A stretch of DNA of 42,176 bases from a virus (IMGVR_UViG_3300032053_000165:1-42176); one strand, 5' to 3'. Positions 32,627 through 39,677 are shown, counted from the first letter of the stretch. Program-made: numbers and translations. The notes: generated by a model from the letters alone, not told the origin.

Positions 32627-32841
32627 TGATATGTCTTTCTTTCGTGACTAGTTTGTTCGGCGCGGAGGTACTGATCCCATGCCCTCGTAAGAACGTCCTG
32701 TTGATGCGCAATCATTGCGTTGAACGTTCTTTTCAAGTCAGGACGAATCACCTTATACGCAGTCATCTCAGGAGAGTTCGGACCGTACGTTGTCAATGCC
32801 TCATTAAATGCGGCGACGATCTTAGTATCAACCTTGTTCAT
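32623..32841 (-). CDS. hypothetical protein
   Basis: 72 aa, ATGA-type overlaps both sides. Confidence 0.4.
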   Translation of the reverse strand: MNKVDTKIVAAFNEALTTYGPNSPEMTAYKVIRPDLKRTFNAMIAHQQDVLTRAWDQYLRAEQTSHERKTYQ

Positions 32842-33595
32842 TGTCTTCCTTGATTGGATGAAGCATACTACCCACTAGCGTGAGCCCAGTACTCTGACAG
32901 GGATGTCCTTCTGAATACCAGTATTCCACATTGCCTTCTTTGGACACTGTGATGATTGATGTCGACCTGGTTCCGAAGGCATACTCATCTGCATGCACAC
33001 ACAGTGATTGGAAAGGATCGTGTTCTGTTGAATTCGTGTGATCTCCGAGCAGTTTGAAGAGGTCATTCATCGCAACATCAATTCCTGCGCGTGGATCAAT
33101 TCGATGTGCTAGCACGTCTCCTTGCGCGACCTTACATGCGTATTTCCCGCCACAACAGTCGTTGCTGATGACGTTGACGCCAGGAGGAAGTAGTTCCATT
33201 TCAAGGGCACATGGGCTTCCAACACGTGTCAGAAACATTGCACCCGGTCGACCAAACACGATGTTGAATGGATTGTAGCGCGTAGCATCTAGGTGTGACA
33301 AGATCTTCGCGGCAGAAGAGTGTTGCCTCGCACGCAAACAATCAAGAACGACCTTTCCACGTGACTCGCGGTTTTCGTAATGGTGCTCGTCATCTTGATT
33401 TGTTAGGCCGACGAACCACCCGTCCTCGCAGACACCAGTCCACGTTCCGTTCTTTTCATCATCCCACGGCCTGACAATCTTTTCATTCGTCATTTCAGGA
33501 GGGCGTGATCGCCTGTCATAGCGCTCATCACGGTTTGCCGCAACTATCAGTGGATAGTTGTCAACGTACTCATTGAGGATGACAAGCGTACACAT
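32828..33595 (-). CDS. TANGO2/NRDE-family protein
   Basis: N-terminus MCTLVIL...PLIVAANRDE is the family signature (Cys2, NRDE). Confidence 0.7.
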   Translation of the reverse strand: MCTLVILNEYVDNYPLIVAANRDERYDRRSRPPEMTNEKIVRPWDDEKNGTWTGVCEDGWFVGLTNQDDEHHYENRESRGKVVLDCLRARQHSSAAKILSHLDATRYNPFNIVFGRPGAMFLTRVGSPCALEMELLPPGVNVISNDCCGGKYACKVAQGDVLAHRIDPRAGIDVAMNDLFKLLGDHTNSTEHDPFQSLCVHADEYAFGTRSTSIITVSKEGNVEYWYSEGHPCQSTGLTLVGSMLHPIKEDNEQG

Positions 33596-33602
33596 GGTTC
33601 AC

Positions 33603-34514
33603 TCACGTTTCGTAAGCGTCCATCAGCTGCTTACCGAGCTGCTTCAGAAAGGGCGCGCCGAATGTGCTACCGTTCTCTTTTTCGAGGTCGTCTTCGAAGA
33701 ACGTAGGCAGGTCTTCGCGCATTCTGCACGAGGCGATGCCCCAAGCGATCGCAGCCACACTGTCTGTGTCGCCTCCCCACTCGAGCACCTGTGTCATGAT
33801 GCCGAGAAGTGTAGTCTGTGTTGTCAAGAGCGTGTGCACCGCCCATGCAGTATTCATGCCTACGTCCCAAGGCGAGTGGTCGCACTTGCTGACAACAGGA
33901 CCCACCCAAGGCTCACGGAATTTCTCGCAGACCGGCAACCATGAGGTCAACCACCCGGTCATGTCAATAAGCTCGCGCTCATCTCGAAGGGCGTAGTGCG
34001 ACATCAGACCGATCGCTTTCGAAGAGTCAACGCCTTGTTGTGTAGCATGCGTGACGACTGCTTGTTTTTCAGCCATCCGCAGAACACAGTGCGGCGTAGA
34101 AAGCACACCTAGAGGCACTGAACGCATTGCGGCGCCGTTCTTCGTAGAATTGGGAATGATTGTGTGAAGGAACTCGCTCAACGTTCCGCACTTTTCAAGG
34201 ACTGACTGGAAACCTCGAGAATACCCGTCACGTTCATCACGCTTGAATGCCTCGAGAAAGTGGGCAGCGAAGGCAACACCTGAAGGTTGTGGATCTTCGA
34301 TCAACGCTTCGGCAACCGCGATCGACATCTGTGTATCGTCAGTGTACGTTCCGGCGGGAAGCTTGTGATACGAGGGGTGCGTCAGATAACGCTTAAACTC
34401 CAGGAGTTCGATTGCTTCAGGTTCTTCAGGATGTCGTTTGCAGTATTCTGCAGCCATGGCGTATGCATCGCCTTGGGCAATGCGCAGTAACATGTTATCA
34501 TTGCGATGAATCAT
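33603..34514 (-). CDS. ADP-ribosylglycohydrolase (ARH/DraG family)
   Basis: GDAYAMAAEY, YTDDTQM, GAAMRSVPLG, GGDTDSVAAIAWGIA motifs; SD AGGAG 6 nt before 2nd ATG. Confidence 0.8.
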   Translation of the reverse strand: MIHRNDNMLLRIAQGDAYAMAAEYCKRHPEEPEAIELLEFKRYLTHPSYHKLPAGTYTDDTQMSIAVAEALIEDPQPSGVAFAAHFLEAFKRDERDGYSRGFQSVLEKCGTLSEFLHTIIPNSTKNGAAMRSVPLGVLSTPHCVLRMAEKQAVVTHATQQGVDSSKAIGLMSHYALRDERELIDMTGWLTSWLPVCEKFREPWVGPVVSKCDHSPWDVGMNTAWAVHTLLTTQTTLLGIMTQVLEWGGDTDSVAAIAWGIASCRMREDLPTFFEDDLEKENGSTFGAPFLKQLGKQLMDAYET

Positions 34515-34960
34515 CCCCATCTCCTGTGTCCGCGCCTGTTCTGATCAACGTTGCCATCAAGCGCGTCATTCAATGCTTCTGCTGCGGTCTCGTAGATGTC
34601 ATACGTCCTGCTCAGGCGATTGTATGCACCTTGCTGAGTGCGAACGTCGGCGTCATTCTCACAGATCTTCTTGAGCTCCTCAGCGATCCAGTAACCCGTT
34701 GAGATGAGCATCTTCGTCGCAGGATCGGGCTTCCAGTTTTCAGGACGACCAACTGCCCAAGGAGCGAACAGACGCTCGACATCATTTTCTACGGCGTCTT
34801 GCACAAATTTAGCAGTGTATCGCACCCGAGGCACGACACCCTGGTATTGATCACACGCGACCATGTGCTTGTGAAATACGGGATCGCCCTCATATTGAGC
34901 ATATCCCCCGGGAGGATCAGAGCCCGATCGTGGATCCCAATTTCCCCACCTGTTCGACAT
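34511..34960 (-). CDS. hypothetical protein
   Basis: 149 aa. Confidence 0.5.
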   Translation of the reverse strand: MSNRWGNWDPRSGSDPPGGYAQYEGDPVFHKHMVACDQYQGVVPRVRYTAKFVQDAVENDVERLFAPWAVGRPENWKPDPATKMLISTGYWIAEELKKICENDADVRTQQGAYNRLSRTYDIYETAAEALNDALDGNVDQNRRGHRRWG

Positions 34961-35166
34961 TACTTCTTGTCTTCGTCTTTCTCGTCATCGATGTCAGTCA
35001 AAACGACCTGAAAGATCTTCCCGTCGAGCAAGAGCCTGCGAACATGCACCGTCGATGCATGAAAATAAACCTGCTGCGGCGTTTCGCCTTTTGCACGAGC
35101 GAGCAGGCACAGTGCGGCCTCGAGCTGAGTGAATACGTTGTCAACGTCGGGGTGTTTCGTGGTCAT
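34960..35166 (-). CDS. small acidic-tailed protein
   Basis: 68 aa, ATGA overlap. Confidence 0.4.
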   Translation of the reverse strand: MTTKHPDVDNVFTQLEAALCLLARAKGETPQQVYFHASTVHVRRLLLDGKIFQVVLTDIDDEKDEDKK

Positions 35167-35269
35167 CGTGTCTTGATACTACATCATCAGTGCCAATAGT
35201 ACACGATGTGTGTTAGTGAGGAACGTGAATGATATTTCGAACTCGAACACGTCGCACCTTATTTTGCTT

Positions 35270-38406: not shown

Positions 38407-38409
38407 TGG

Positions 38410-38616
38410 TCAGTTCAAAAGCCCGGGCTTTTTCACAAACAGAACGGCCTTGTCAGTCTTCTTTTCGTCCATGGCTGATAGGATCGCCAGAAGGTGTAGC
38501 TTCGTTAGGACGAAGACATGTCCATCCTTCACCGTCGAGCAGGCGATGCCCTGTTTCTCTGCAGCCTCAAGGAGATAGTTGACGTCGGCATCGTCGGACG
38601 GCGGTTTTGTGGTCAT
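38410..38616 (-). CDS. hypothetical protein
   Basis: 68 aa filling the gap. Confidence 0.4.
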   Translation of the reverse strand: MTTKPPSDDADVNYLLEAAEKQGIACSTVKDGHVFVLTKLHLLAILSAMDEKKTDKAVLFVKKPGLLN

Positions 38617-38670
38617 GTTCCATCATACAATACCTCAGCCTTAGTTTACACCAACAGGAGCCCACTCAAG

Positions 38671-39072
38671 CTACTTGGAAGTGCCCGATTGTTTCTTGGG
38701 CTGGTTACCCTTGGTCGGCAGTCCCAATTTTCTCCATAGACGTCGATTGTACTCGCCGAACGGCCCTGCGAACAGGACTTCAGGGTCGACCCACCTGACC
38801 ACGCCCGATTCTGGCGTGTTGATCTGGCCAGTGACCTCAGTCGCGAAGGTTGTCGTCGTGTAGCCATCGTGCTCGCTGCGAGTGAACACAGGATGCAAGC
38901 GTGTGGCCGTGAGGCCCGTCTCTTCCTGCAACTCCCGCGCAGCGGCGGTGATTGAATCCTCGCCGGGATCGACTTTTCCGCCGGGCAATCCGAATGCCGT
39001 CGGGTCATCCTTGCGAGAGACCGCTAGAACCTGTCCGTCGTCGCTCAGAACAAGGCAACATGCCGCCTTCAT
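38671..39072 (-). CDS. NUDIX hydrolase (may extend N-terminally to TTG at 39306)
   Basis: Nudix box GLPGGKVDPGEDSITAAARELQEETGL; fold-typical start MKAACCLVLSDDGQVL. Confidence 0.75.
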   Translation of the reverse strand: MKAACCLVLSDDGQVLAVSRKDDPTAFGLPGGKVDPGEDSITAAARELQEETGLTATRLHPVFTRSEHDGYTTTTFATEVTGQINTPESGVVRWVDPEVLFAGPFGEYNRRLWRKLGLPTKGNQPKKQSGTSK

Positions 39073-39236
39073 CGTGTTTTGATTGTTGAGTTGCTCTTGG
39101 TCTGCTTCATCGTCGAGCACGTTTGTGTTTGCACGAACAGGCACGCCTCCTCGAAGGTTCGTTCCCGTGTCCTTGCCGGCAGACATTCCGATGTTATTGA
39201 CGATCTCTCTGATCGCCTGTTTGAGCAGCCGCTGAG

Positions 39237-39677
39237 CTACTTTCGAATCGAGCATGCGCGCCCCGTGCACGTGTTTGTTGGCTGCTTTGGTTGAGCCAAC
39301 GGGCAACTTTCGATCTGACTACACGCAGTGATCTTTGATACGCACGTCGGATCGAGCCAGACACCTTGATTCTCAACGGCAACGCAAAAATTTGCGCATG
39401 ACGTCATGCACTTGTTGGTCGTGGCATCGCACGTTTGTGACGCGTCTGTTTGGCCGTACACGTCTTTGCAATTTCCAAACGCATCACAGCGAGTACCCAT
39501 GTCGATTGGGTCTCCTTCTTTGCACCCAAGTTTTTGAAGGTTAGCACATGCATCAACACACACGTTTTGATCAGTGACAACGGGCGGGACAGGCGTCACT
39601 ACGACAGGCTTTGGACAGCCGATGATCAGCGCTACACACGCAATGAACAACACGTTAGCAATCTTCTTCATTTTCAT
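39237..39677 (-). CDS. Cys-rich secreted lipoprotein
   Basis: signal peptide with lipobox LIIGC; 16 Cys; Pro/Val-rich linker. Confidence 0.55.
   Translation of the reverse strand: MKMKKIANVLFIACVALIIGCPKPVVVTPVPPVVTDQNVCVDACANLQKLGCKEGDPIDMGTRCDAFGNCKDVYGQTDASQTCDATTNKCMTSCANFCVAVENQGVWLDPTCVSKITACSQIESCPLAQPKQPTNTCTGRACSIRK

Follow-up and report, generated by a model that had tools for sequence, protein, structure and literature searches.

An uncultivated jumbo-phage locus encoding a stand-alone MBD4-type DNA glycosylase, a short UDP-sugar pyrophosphorylase and a NUDIX hydrolase beside a separate accessory operon

The window analysed here is a 42,176-nucleotide stretch of viral DNA (IMGVR_UViG_3300032053_000165) from an uncultivated lineage of jumbo phages whose genomes measure about 320-370 kb. 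Fifty related loci, on contigs of up to 369 kb, were found in IMG/VR, and phage markers in the window include Gp23 capsid-family matches, a phage lysozyme and a PHROG GroEL; the host is possibly a member of the Myxococcota or Bdellovibrionota. Because the locus was recovered from at least five independent assemblies at 99-100% protein identity, it is no assembly artefact.

Five enzymes that had been recognised in a sequence-only reading, a TANGO2/NRDE protein, an ADP-ribosylglycohydrolase (ARH), an HhH glycosylase, a UDPGP-family pyrophosphorylase and a NUDIX hydrolase, are indeed encoded on the minus strand (Table 1), where each exceeds the curated Pfam cut-off for its family and the catalytic motifs are intact where checked, which for the NUDIX protein means the Nudix box only. 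Six more ORFs are interspersed with these five, and the reading had missed a sixth enzyme-like gene among them, which codes for a T4 endonuclease V (EndoV)-like protein. While the five had been described as a single co-oriented block, the plus-strand protease gene and the 148-bp divergent intergenic region divide them into two back-to-back leftward operons, which are defined by gene orientation and spacing only, because a scan for promoters and terminators was uninformative. Unit A (42016 to 36153) begins with lysis-type genes and continues through NUDIX, a 68-aa ORF, the EndoV-like gene, UDPGP and the glycosylase to a 97-aa ORF, while unit B (35166 to 30420) comprises two ORFs, ARH, TANGO2/NRDE, two more ORFs and an AAA+ ATPase; ARH and NUDIX thus lie more than 4 kb apart in separate units. 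The enzymes and their families are real; they do not form a single module, and most of the functional story attached to it is not supported.

Table 1. Features of the locus, with positions counted from the first nucleotide of the window
Feature	Position	Strand	Evidence
AAA+ ATPase, 237-aa ORF and 72-aa ORF (rest of second operon)	30420..32841	-	AAA Pfam E 1.3e-13
TANGO2/NRDE-family protein, N-terminal Cys and NRDE motif	32828..33595	-	Pfam TANGO2 E 1.2e-29
ARH/DraG-family ADP-ribosylglycohydrolase	33603..34520	-	Pfam ADP_ribosyl_GH E 1e-30, domain covered end to end
Two conserved ORFs, 68 aa and 149 aa, at the start of the second operon, upstream of ARH	34511..35166	-	ORF map
Divergent intergenic region, 148 bp, between protease gene and second minus-strand operon	35167..35314	.	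Sequence read
Trypsin/HtrA-like serine protease, lipoprotein-type signal (LPAC)	35315..36163	+	Pfam Trypsin_2 E 2.1e-21
Conserved small ORF, 97 aa, after and overlapping the glycosylase gene	36153..36446	-	Homologues in relatives
Stand-alone MBD4-type HhH-GPD DNA glycosylase	36382..36858	-	Pfam HhH-GPD E 2.8e-10; PDB MBD4 match
Short UDPGP-family UDP-sugar pyrophosphorylase, 356 aa	36855..37925 (longest ORF to 38024)	-	Pfam UDPGP E 2.4e-13
T4 endonuclease V (Pyr_excise)-like protein	37894..38406	-	Pfam E 1.3e-5; PHROG 624 E 4.7e-50
Conserved 68-aa protein between NUDIX and EndoV-like gene	38410..38616	-	tblastn homologues
NUDIX hydrolase, 194 aa from ATG 39255 (ORF reaches TTG 39306)	38671..39255	-	Pfam NUDIX E 4.8e-20

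The assignment of the HhH glycosylase to the MBD4 type, as first proposed, is borne out by comparison with PDB sequences, where the MBD4 glycosylase domain is matched at E 1.7e-25, or at 5e-38 when a family profile is used, and the second-best family at 1e-8. The equivalents of mouse D534, Y514, Q423, L421, L440 and N441 are kept and are invariant in the family, and the equivalents of R442 (Cys), G445 (Arg), L482 (Phe), L485 (Arg) and K536 (Ala) are substituted. In the junction sequence, the GTG start of the glycosylase gene overlaps the UDPGP stop codon as GTGA, so that the two genes are translationally coupled. The 97-aa ORF that follows has no Pfam match, and its single-sequence AF2 model (pLDDT 51) is too poor for use.

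The UDPGP gene probably starts at ATG 37925, preceded by the ribosome-binding site AAGGAAG, which gives a protein shorter than the longest ORF. Its fold is of the eukaryotic type, as had been suggested: the AF2 model (pLDDT 92.6) finds its best Foldseek matches in plant, yeast and human UGPase and in UAP1 (TMq 0.71-0.79), and the G-rich loop LAGGAGTRMGEPK is conserved together with the GHGD and KGG motifs. Among named cellular proteins, the enzyme is closest to short UDPGPs from Myxococcota, Polyangia and Pseudomonadota MAGs, with profile E-values of about 1e-58 to 1e-63.

The NUDIX gene likewise probably starts downstream of its longest ORF, and the Nudix box GGKVDPGEDSITAAARELQEETGL is directly legible in the sequence. 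In its core the protein shares 42-47% identity with NudE homologues of T4-like Acinetobacter phages, an Ap4A hydrolase is the top PDB match, and it reaches no NCBIfam equivalog cut-off, scoring E 9e-13 with a MutT-like model as opposed to 1e-3 with ADP-ribose diphosphatase; its closest relatives in cultured phages are annotated as ADP-ribose pyrophosphatases. The EndoV-like protein scores 25.9 bits against the Pyr_excise cut-off of 23, and the 68-aa ORF beside it has no Pfam match, while tblastn shows many relatives to carry a homologue of it (32-61% identity) in the corresponding place.

In unit B, the best PDB matches of ARH are ARH3 (3e-11) and DraG (4e-8), and its metal-binding motifs YTDD and WGGDTDS are invariant in eight phage homologues, while in NCBIfam it falls far under the DraG and Tri1 equivalog cut-offs. 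The TANGO2 protein, in which C2, N21, R22, D23 and E24 are invariant, has no PHROG match and a single partial match among 50,697 phage records; its nearest named cellular relatives are NRDE proteins of Polyangiaceae and Myxococcales (E about 1e-26, versus 2e-6 for human TANGO2). The 68-aa and 149-aa ORFs at the head of this unit overlap or abut, lack Pfam, PHROG and NCBIfam matches, and have homologues upstream of ARH in relatives. At the other end, the 72-aa ORF, 237-aa ORF and AAA+ ATPase genes are linked by overlapping stops and starts, and the order TANGO2-x-AAA is kept in relatives.

Gene order was compared in 33 non-redundant relatives, with denominators that vary by gene. Upstream of the glycosylase, NUDIX is found in 22/31 relatives and UDPGP, immediately adjacent to it, in 17/31; the 97-aa ORF homologue follows directly downstream in 10/33, and the protease gene is downstream on the opposite strand in 18/33. 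When distant UDPGP homologues (36-38% identity) are taken as the start, the same cassette is recovered, in the order FEN-x-NUDIX-UDPGP-HhH-small ORF-protease. ARH and TANGO2 are each found in just 6 of 26 relatives, and the EndoV-like gene in 5 of 32. Within the lineage, FEN occurs in 47 loci, Fpg/Nei in 25, and a possibly PolX-like protein, whose matches to the Pol-beta palm and thumb are sub-threshold, in 19; relatives carry Fpg/Nei and other genes around the position of the 148-bp intergenic region, and here neither Fpg/Nei nor the PolX-like gene occurs in the window or in its 10-kb flank. The conserved core of the locus is thus a NUDIX protein, a UDP-sugar enzyme and an MBD4-type glycosylase in a DNA-repair neighbourhood. 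Adjacency is, however, weak evidence of a common pathway, because vertically inherited phage gene order persists whatever the function, and the conserved synteny includes lysis genes and the protease.

The reading that we favour, with about even confidence, is that of a phage base-excision and nucleotide-metabolism cassette beside a separate accessory operon; every substrate and the repair role itself are inferred. The interval lies in the accessory and DNA-metabolism arm of the jumbo-phage genome, where the conserved core of unit A may supply the phage with its own base-excision and nucleotide housekeeping. The glycosylase, a stand-alone enzyme of MBD4 type, would flip out a pyrimidine of the uracil or thymine type from the DNA, reading its O2 and N3 via Gln12 and Tyr103 and cutting the glycosidic bond with Asp123, with Phe71, Arg34 and Arg74 probably standing in for the mammalian leucine wedge and arginine finger. 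The resulting abasic site could be handled by the FEN encoded nearby or by host enzymes, and in relatives also by Fpg/Nei and the possible PolX-like enzyme. The NUDIX protein is predicted to hydrolyse a nucleoside-diphosphate-X compound, with T4 NudE-like, Ap4A-hydrolase-like and MutT-like substrates as candidates. UDPGP would make UDP-hexose from UTP and hexose-1-phosphate; to our knowledge it has no part in base-excision repair, and it is its conserved, translationally coupled adjacency that suggests a link to the glycosylase. Unit B is a more variable accessory operon, in which an apparently active ARH may remove ADP-ribose from some target and the TANGO2/NRDE protein is of bacterial type.

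The pairing of a glycosylase with a UDP-sugar enzyme had also been taken as a hint of modified DNA, and a link of this kind is possible. In its full form, which we consider rather unlikely, the cassette would serve a phage genome with modified, possibly glycosylated, cytosine or uracil: NUDIX would clear a competing canonical dNTP, UDPGP would give the UDP-hexose donor for a DNA glycosyltransferase, and the glycosylase would remove pyrimidines that accumulate in such a genome through deamination or for want of modification (T, U or 5hmU opposite G). The hint gains some support from the coupled UDPGP-glycosylase adjacency, which persists at 22-38% UDPGP identity, and from phage Xp12, whose genome contains 5mC (PMC7653180) and which, like its relatives, carries a homologous glycosylase within its cytosine-modification operon, beside an NTP-PPase and a thymidylate-synthase homologue. 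The removal of T and 5hmU opposite G by MBD4 (PMC3458566) suits this pathway, as does the divergence of the jumbo-phage clade from MBD4 at residues flanking the C5 side of the base (the K536 and G445 equivalents), and the NDP-sugar pyrophosphorylases that phages encode for DNA arabinosylation are a precedent (PMC13326640). Also in its favour, a GT2+TPR glycosyltransferase is encoded at 13848-14876, and neither CpG depletion nor palindrome avoidance was seen, although this compositional evidence is very weak. Against it, the 42-kb window and 10-kb flank, which are only part of a genome of ~360 kb, showed no thymidylate-synthase/hydroxymethylase homologue, TET, DNA kinase or recognisable DNA glycosyltransferase; UDPGP is missing in 14 of the 31 relatives that retain the glycosylase, and NUDIX is closer to NudE and Ap4A hydrolases than to known dCTPases.

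It was also proposed that ARH and NUDIX form a counter-defence pair neutralising DarT-, Thoeris- or similar immunity, where ARH would strip ADP-ribose off DNA, protein or signalling adducts and NUDIX would destroy ADP-ribose or NAD-derived signals. Since the NUDIX substrate is ambiguous and its cultured-phage relatives are annotated as ADP-ribose pyrophosphatases, this idea fits that enzyme as well as the repair reading does; the metal-binding motifs of ARH are intact, and in the relatives sampled ARH never occurs without NUDIX (both in 6 loci, ARH only in 0). In 12 of the 18 fully flanked relatives, however, NUDIX is present with no ARH in range, and NUDIX instead tracks the glycosylase. The two genes belong to different operons, separated by the convergent protease gene. 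The vicinity showed no ADP-ribosyltransferase, macrodomain or NAD-salvage gene, PADLOC returned generic domain matches and nothing specific, and the NCBIfam scores place ADP-ribose diphosphatase well behind the MutT-like model; taken as a pair, they are improbable agents of anti-immunity. Least credible, to the point of being very improbable, is a eukaryote-derived gene set like the eukaryotic association module (EAM) of phage WO, from or acting on the eukaryotic host of the host bacterium: metazoan MBD4 matches the glycosylase far better than do the bacterial HhH families tested, all of which score 1e-8 or worse, the UDPGP fold matches eukaryotic enzymes with a Klosneuvirus protein of the same length as best viral match, and MVP and a C1 peptidase likewise occur in the window, but TANGO2 and UDPGP are much nearer to the bacterial MAG proteins than to eukaryotic ones, and both ARH and NUDIX belong to families that are ubiquitous among bacteria and phages. 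The genes are also scattered among ordinary phage genes and make up no dedicated block, domains typical of an EAM (ankyrin, latrotoxin-type or others) were not seen, and phages of free-living bacteria, those of Xanthomonas and Janthinobacterium for example, widely carry this glycosylase clade. The glycosylase is the only one of the five that is truly eukaryote-like, in that it is closest to a eukaryotic protein.

Compared with the mammalian MBD4 domain (PDB 4EW4, 1NGN, 4E9E), the phage glycosylase is collinear across ~140 residues and conserves the catalytic Asp, the Tyr and Gln that read thymine/uracil O2/N3, and the stacking Leu and Asn; it differs in standing alone without a methyl-CpG-binding domain and in having Cys for the Arg442 finger and Phe for the Leu482 wedge. 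The phage UDPGP shares a truncated ~355-380-aa architecture, without the C-terminal domain, with the short bacterial UDPGPs of Myxococcota/Polyangia MAGs (28% identity to a Myxococcota protein, BLASTP E 5e-37) and with Klosneuvirus UGPase (TM 0.72), while its first ~65 residues are peculiar to the phage clade, as the profile aligns with the bacterial proteins only from near position 65. T4 NudE.1 acts on FAD, Ap3A and ADP-ribose; the NUDIX protein described here resembles this type in its core, as opposed to its ~60-residue N-terminal extension and its neighbours, UDPGP and the glycosylase here and polynucleotide kinase in the T4-type setting.

Virus-encoded base-excision repair is known from T4 (DenV), from the Nei glycosylases of Mimivirus and from Pol X of ASFV, and we know of no MBD4-type enzyme described in such sets. 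As in these, a large viral genome groups FEN with several types of DNA glycosylase: EndoV-like and MBD4-like enzymes here, and in relatives Fpg/Nei, together with a possible minimal PolX-like enzyme, a call under the Pfam threshold. Unlike in them, neither an AP endonuclease nor a ligase was identified in the vicinity of the locus. A close parallel for the glycosylase gene itself is in the Xp12-like 5mC phages Xp12, AXL1, DoCa6 and Donnerlittchen, whose MBD4-like (ENDO3c or 'endonuclease III') genes belong to the same subfamily at about 30-34% identity; Xp12-type enzymes retain Lys536, where the glycosylase here has Ala. In Xp12-like 5mC phages, the operon encodes PolA, a helicase, the MBD4-like protein, a PRA-PH/MazG-like NTP-PPase, a thymidylate-synthase homologue, dCMP deaminase and DHFR, so that the glycosylase again neighbours a nucleotide pyrophosphohydrolase in a replication and nucleotide-metabolism operon, while its partners here are NUDIX and UDPGP with no synthase seen. 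In a second viral group, the operon comprises RecA, FEN, DnaB, RNR, ClpP, ThyX, the MBD4-like protein and Fpg; independent lineages thus place the homologous glycosylase in nucleotide and replication operons.

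Within the minus-strand genes of the window, the NUDIX hydrolase, the UDPGP-family pyrophosphorylase (UDPGP) and the MBD4-type glycosylase are read here, with middling confidence, as a conserved phage base-excision and nucleotide-metabolism cassette, which lies beside a separate and more variable accessory operon carrying an ADP-ribosylglycohydrolase (ARH) and a TANGO2/NRDE protein. All five of these proteins had been named in a sequence-only reading of the same DNA, and all of them are encoded on that strand and score above the Pfam curated cut-off. The single co-oriented block in which they were said to lie is, however, split into two leftward units, because a plus-strand protease gene and a divergent intergenic region interrupt it, so that the original observation is partly confirmed, with the families right and the architecture wrong. 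Unit A comprises a membrane protein, phage lysozyme, C1 peptidase, a 112-aa ORF, a lipoprotein, NUDIX, a 68-aa ORF, an EndoV-like protein, UDPGP, the glycosylase and a 97-aa ORF, while unit B comprises a 68-aa ORF, a 149-aa ORF, ARH, TANGO2, a 72-aa ORF, a 237-aa ORF and an AAA+ ATPase. Adjacent genes abut or overlap inside both units, and the UDPGP stop shares a GTGA tetranucleotide with the GTG start of the glycosylase.

Features of the window discussed in the text, with their positions and strands
Feature	Position	Strand	Remarks
Five named enzymes	32828-39306	-	
Unit A	42016 to 36153	leftward	ORF map
Unit B	35166 to 30420	leftward	ORF map
Trypsin/HtrA-like protease	35315-36163	+	lipoprotein-type signal; convergent with cassette
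Divergent intergenic region	35167-35314		148 bp; after protease gene
MBD4-type glycosylase	36382-36858	-	158 aa
UDPGP	36855-37925	-	probable start ATG 37925
T4 endonuclease V family gene	37894-38406	-	sixth enzyme-like gene; Pyr_excise E 1.3e-5 (above cut-off); PHROG 624 E 4.7e-50
NUDIX hydrolase		-	probable start ATG 39255
Lysis-type cluster	39237-42016	-	directly upstream of NUDIX
Lipoprotein	39237-39677	-	lysis-type cluster; LIIGC lipobox
Phage lysozyme		-	lysis-type cluster; E 9e-38
Papain-family C1 peptidase		-	lysis-type cluster; E 1.5e-15
Membrane protein	41531-42016	-	lysis-type cluster
149-aa gene	34511-34960		upstream of ARH
68-aa ORFs	34960-35166; 38410-38616		
GT2+TPR glycosyltransferase	13848-14876		precedes MVP homologue
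Major vault protein (MVP) homologue	14957-17680	+	907 aa; MVP_shoulder E 5.4e-28; Vault_3 E 3.9e-7
T4 Gp23-matching ORFs	19833-20243; 20466-21062	+	adjacent; 136 and 198 aa
66-aa ORF	24539-24739	-	eIF-1a/IF1-type S1-like fold (PF01176), precomputed match

The longest-ORF starts of UDPGP and NUDIX are probably wrong, and the ATG starts in the table are preferred because they match independent gene calls and homologue lengths; for the glycosylase, which is shortened to 138 aa in some automated gene calls, the GTG form is taken as right because its conserved N-terminus contains Gln12. A promoter and terminator scan gave no useful pattern, promoter-like sites not being enriched over shuffles, and a single-sequence AF2 model of the 97-aa ORF after the glycosylase (pLDDT 51) was unusable. 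The two 68-aa ORFs were considered as paralogues and rejected (BLASTP E 0.057, hhalign probability 0.7%). In the lysis-type cluster, the C1 peptidase beside the lysozyme may be a lysis or cell-wall enzyme, and not a eukaryote-like protein. The 149-aa gene is called as a 107-aa variant in two relative loci, L002 and L003 (366-692), with only 86% identity over the matched part; elsewhere these assemblies are 99-100% identical to the window, and the difference suggests local microdiversity.

The MBD4 assignment of the glycosylase has proved to be specific. The protein matches HhH-GPD in Pfam (E 2.8e-10), and among all PDB sequences only MBD4 catalytic domains match it strongly: residues 3-139 are collinear with the MBD4 catalytic domain (E 1.7e-25, single sequence against PDB) and a 34-sequence profile reaches MBD4 at E 5e-38, the next families in PDB being the archaeal T:G glycosylase Mig (1e-8) and MutY (1e-6). 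It is a stand-alone protein, with no methyl-CpG-binding domain at the N-terminus. Residue roles are those established for mouse MBD4, and a numbering check reproduces every mouse residue named in that study (PMC3458566). Catalytic Asp534, essential and O2-reading Tyr514, and Gln423, which reads O2 and N3, align with phage D123, Y103 and Q12, which are invariant in 34 homologues; the equivalents of these three residues, of Leu421 and Leu440, which stack on the flipped base (L10, L29), and of the minor-groove contact Asn441 (N30) are invariant across the phage family. Because the base-reading residues are conserved, the hydrogen-bonding pattern that favours uracil- or thymine-type bases over cytosines is retained. 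The Arg442 finger and the intercalating Leu482 wedge are not kept (Cys31 and Phe71), and arginine is found instead at the positions of Gly445, near the C5 substituent (Arg34), and of Leu485, a minor-groove contact (Arg74). Lys536, which stacks on the base and touches the 5hmU hydroxyl, is Ala125 in the phage protein and is kept in Xp12-type proteins. Judged from this alignment, the residues that intercalate into DNA have changed relative to MBD4, as has the pocket on its C5 side, and the enzyme is inferred to be a monofunctional glycosylase whose targets would be U, T or 5-substituted U, in the simplest case opposite G.

UDPGP belongs to PF01704 (Pfam E 2.4e-13), and its fold has been corroborated by an AF2 model (pLDDT 92.6) that superposes on plant, yeast and human UGPase and on UAP1 (TMq 0.71-0.79; Foldseek E 6.5e-25, TMq 0.75). 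An alignment to Arabidopsis UGPase shows that the nucleotide loop (GGxGTxMG..PK, with its Lys) and the GHGD and KGG motifs are kept. G90, K100, G183-D186 and G246-G247 are invariant, and the predicted product is most likely a UDP-hexose. The C-terminal domain of the eukaryotic UGPase/UAP1 is missing (356 aa vs 450-500 aa), and the target-normalised TM is only 0.55-0.63. A word-indexed search returned only short phage-clade proteins; an exhaustive profile search recovered a large short-protein family (257 representatives at E <=1e-30), whose named members outside the phage clade come from Myxococcota, Polyangia and Pseudomonadota MAGs, one of them 28% identical to the window protein (BLASTP E 5e-37). 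The eukaryotic origin once proposed for UDPGP is not borne out, since these short bacterial MAG proteins are its nearest named relatives. For NUDIX (Pfam E 4.8e-20), the Nudix box GX5EX7REUXEEXGU can be read directly in the sequence, and the best PDB match is plant Ap4A hydrolase, with ADPRase at E 2e-5. NCBIfam models for MutT-like proteins (9e-13), NudE (3e-8) and ADPR diphosphatase (1e-3) all score below their cut-offs, with MutT also among the best models, and among cultured phages its nearest relatives are NudE homologues from T4-like Acinetobacter phages (42-47% identity).

Gene order was compared using annotations already computed for four relatives, together with a tblastn matrix that covered every fetched locus. 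The conserved order runs (FEN) ... membrane protein, lysozyme, C1 peptidase, two other genes, NUDIX, small ORF, (EndoV-like), UDPGP, MBD4-like, (small ORF), opposite-strand protease, (Fpg/Nei) ... 68-aa ORF, 149-aa ORF, (ARH), (TANGO2), another gene, AAA+, GroEL. For counting, near-identical loci were collapsed, which left 33 non-redundant relatives whose glycosylase is 45% identical or more, and each gene was scored only in loci with enough flanking sequence. UDPGP was found within 2 kb upstream of the glycosylase in 17 of 31 loci and NUDIX within 4.5 kb upstream in 22 of 31, the protease was downstream on the opposite strand in 18 of 33, and ARH and TANGO2 were within 8 kb and 9 kb downstream, respectively, in 6 of 26 each. 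Eighteen loci are fully flanked, and in these NUDIX accompanies ARH in 6 and occurs without it in 12, with no case of ARH without NUDIX. A compact NUDIX-UDPGP-glycosylase trio is present in more distant relatives (L021, L025, L027, L028, L035-L037), and the same arrangement was recovered from UDPGP homologues only 36-38% identical. From the locus counts, the distant trios and the UDPGP-seeded loci, the durable association is therefore between NUDIX and the glycosylase, UDPGP often lying between the two, and not between NUDIX and ARH. At one relative locus (L065) a GIY-YIG/NUMOD3 homing endonuclease gene (7167-7961) sits between UDPGP and the glycosylase, and it is missing from the near-identical L066 and L067.

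Clustering of all ORFs of the fetched loci brought out three recurrent neighbours: a 5'-3' exonuclease/FEN in 47 loci (FEN by precomputed Pfam), Fpg/Nei in 25 and a 194-aa protein in 19, with 60-75% mutual identity. Since the matches of this last protein to the DNA polymerase beta palm and thumb (E 5e-3 and 7e-4) are sub-threshold, its PolX-like identity is a lead, not a finding. Neither Fpg/Nei nor the PolX-like gene is present in the window and its 10-kb flank. In L004-L008, Fpg/Nei, a vWA-like gene and others lie between the protease and the ARH operon, where the window has the 148-bp intergenic region, and the window phage appears to have lost these genes. A short (330 aa) adenylosuccinate-synthetase homologue occurs a few kb from the cassette in L021, L024, L041 and L065-L067 (e.g. 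L066 11763-12755; Pfam E 4.7e-80), which is the size expected of PurZ in phages with 2-aminoadenine (Z) genomes; the same sub-clade has a glutamine-synthetase-like gene nearby, and the window has neither. Downstream of the cassette in L027, L033, L035, L038 and L040 are three conserved large minus-strand genes (~644, 448 and 386 aa) that, judged by eye from their sequences, look like a PrkA/SpoVR/YeaH-type trio.

The main rival explanation, which we consider unlikely, is that the cassette serves a modified, possibly glycosylated, phage genome. The translational coupling of UDPGP to the glycosylase, the altered C5-side pocket of the latter and the parallel with phage Xp12 speak for it, but no base-modifying enzyme is found in the ~52 kb inspected of roughly 360 kb: precomputed Pfam annotations of the window and its 10-kb flank contain no thymidylate-synthase/hydroxymethylase homologue, TET, DpdA, kinase or DNA glycosyltransferase, and tblastn queries with the Xp12 synthase and ThyX gave no match there. 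Dinucleotide and palindrome statistics show no CpG depletion and no palindrome or site avoidance, and are too weak to use. Little credence is given to a further reading, in which the cassette is a previously undescribed jumbo-phage system maintaining or modifying DNA bases, for example by keeping a glycosylated or C5-modified pyrimidine genome clean. On this view the altered C5 side of the glycosylase pocket (Lys536 to Ala, Gly445 to Arg) would suit the enzyme to removing bases that are deaminated or lack the modification, while UDPGP would be the source of the sugar donor and NUDIX would dispose of the competing nucleotide. If the base-excision and nucleotide-metabolism reading is true, a widespread lineage of very large environmental phages has its own multi-glycosylase repair toolkit, including an MBD4-type enzyme otherwise known from animals and plants. 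No new mechanism is demonstrated by any of these results.

Turning to the accessory operon, ARH (PF03747, Pfam E 1e-30) has a full-length domain at residues 15-265, with di-metal-binding motifs YTDD and WGGDTDS that match ARH3 in alignment and do not vary among 8 phage homologues. It falls outside the characterised NCBIfam subfamilies (DraG 50.5 bits vs a cut-off of 337; Tri1 31 vs 490). Only four weak matches were found among phage records, with the two jumbo phages Phosso and Bacillus phage G among them, and the genes surrounding the closest cultured-phage ARH, that of Sinorhizobium jumbo phage Phosso, all encode hypothetical proteins. The proposal that ARH and NUDIX form a counter-defence pair is not supported, since the two genes lie more than 4 kb apart in different operons and most of the fully flanked relatives have NUDIX without ARH; PADLOC returned generic domain matches only.

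TANGO2/NRDE (PF05742, Pfam E 1.2e-29) has an N-terminal Cys (C2) and an NRDE motif (N21-E24) that are invariant across phage and bacterial homologues. Genes of this family do occur in phages and are nearly absent from the 50,697 phage records, in which there is only one partial match; no PHROG family was found. Beyond the phage clade (42-67% identity), the next relatives are bacterial NRDE proteins (31-37%, E 1e-23 to 1e-26), the named ones from Polyangiaceae, Myxococcales and Myxococcaceae MAGs. Human TANGO2 matches at E 1.7e-6, more distantly than these Myxococcota-type proteins, contrary to the eukaryotic affinity first supposed. TANGO2 and UDPGP are thus bacterial in affinity, and eukaryote-likeness survives for the glycosylase alone, which has a eukaryotic closest characterised relative and belongs to a clade widespread among phages with free-living bacterial hosts. 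A family whose Pfam name suggests eukaryotes can have closer relatives in bacteria. Eukaryotic association modules of the phage WO type consist of eukaryote-derived genes, often multidomain and very large, that form a block of their own in a phage whose bacterium is host-associated; here ordinary phage genes lie among the genes in question, bacterial proteins are the nearest named relatives of two of the five, and nothing resembles such a module. The headline reading, a counter-defence pair and a eukaryotic module, is not supported.

The source of the window is an uncultivated jumbo-phage lineage. The locus is near-identical in at least five independent assemblies, the window is nested in a 73,680-bp ENA contig, and no nucleotide match for the region was found among the 50,697 phage records. 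Metagenomic homologues of the glycosylase number more than 300 (56-77% identity); the best 120 are all stand-alone, 130-194 aa long, on contigs of up to 369 kb. An alignment-based scan identified 50 loci in IMG/VR viral contigs, several of 200-369 kb, and it alone succeeded, single-protein scans of IMG/VR with TANGO2 and UDPGP giving no matches. Two contigs of nearly equal length, 369,475 and 369,506 bp, come from different collections and are suggestive of complete genomes; IMGVR_UViG_3300005529_000001 and ENA ERZ27279688 k141_1055159 are examples of the lineage's genomes of roughly 360-370 kb. Besides phage lysozyme, the window encodes a phage-type GroEL. The two ORFs with precomputed matches to the T4 Gp23 major capsid family fall far below the length of a capsid protein, and may represent fragments, a split gene or paralogues of decoration type. 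The vault-shell protein is unusual for a phage, and no relevant literature was found on phage TANGO2, phage MBD4-like enzymes or MVP in jumbo phages.

When the glycosylase alignment was run against 185,579 species genomes, using lineage-specific motifs, one match was returned, to a Bdellovibrionota MAG contig with phage synteny, a result that does not amount to an absence of bacterial MBD4-like genes. This 89-kb contig (L059, JBBAUR010000009.1) carries a membrane protein, C1 peptidase, lipoprotein, NUDIX, UDPGP, glycosylase and small ORF, and is either a mis-binned phage contig or else a host hint. Because TANGO2 and UDPGP have Myxococcota nearest relatives and the cassette is syntenic on this contig, Myxococcota or Bdellovibrionota is weakly suggested as a candidate host.

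That phages conserve gene order is only weak evidence that neighbouring genes share a function. For the pairing of glycosylase and pyrophosphohydrolase in the cassette, the strongest reason to see function and not just inherited order is that non-homologous pyrophosphohydrolases stand beside the glycosylase in two lineages: NUDIX in the present one, a MazG-like enzyme in the Xp12-like phages. Xp12 is the classic 5-methylcytosine phage (PMC7653180), and its MBD4-type enzyme lies inside a cytosine-modification operon; in Xp12 and its relatives, genes for DNA polymerase I, helicase and others are followed by the MBD4-like gene, a PRA-PH/MazG-type NTP pyrophosphohydrolase, a thymidylate-synthase homologue, dCMP deaminase and DHFR. 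A second viral group (L048-L057) carries RecA, FEN, DnaB, ribonucleotide reductase, ClpP, ThyX, the MBD4-like gene and Fpg. Two unrelated phage groups thus carry the same glycosylase subfamily in nucleotide and replication operons. The Xp12 case suggests, as a simple testable idea, that a T:G or U:G mismatch glycosylase is required by phages whose cytosines are methylated or modified in some other way. What is new in the window is the phage clade, its enzyme type being known already and its arrangement undescribed but plausible; the system is not of a new kind.
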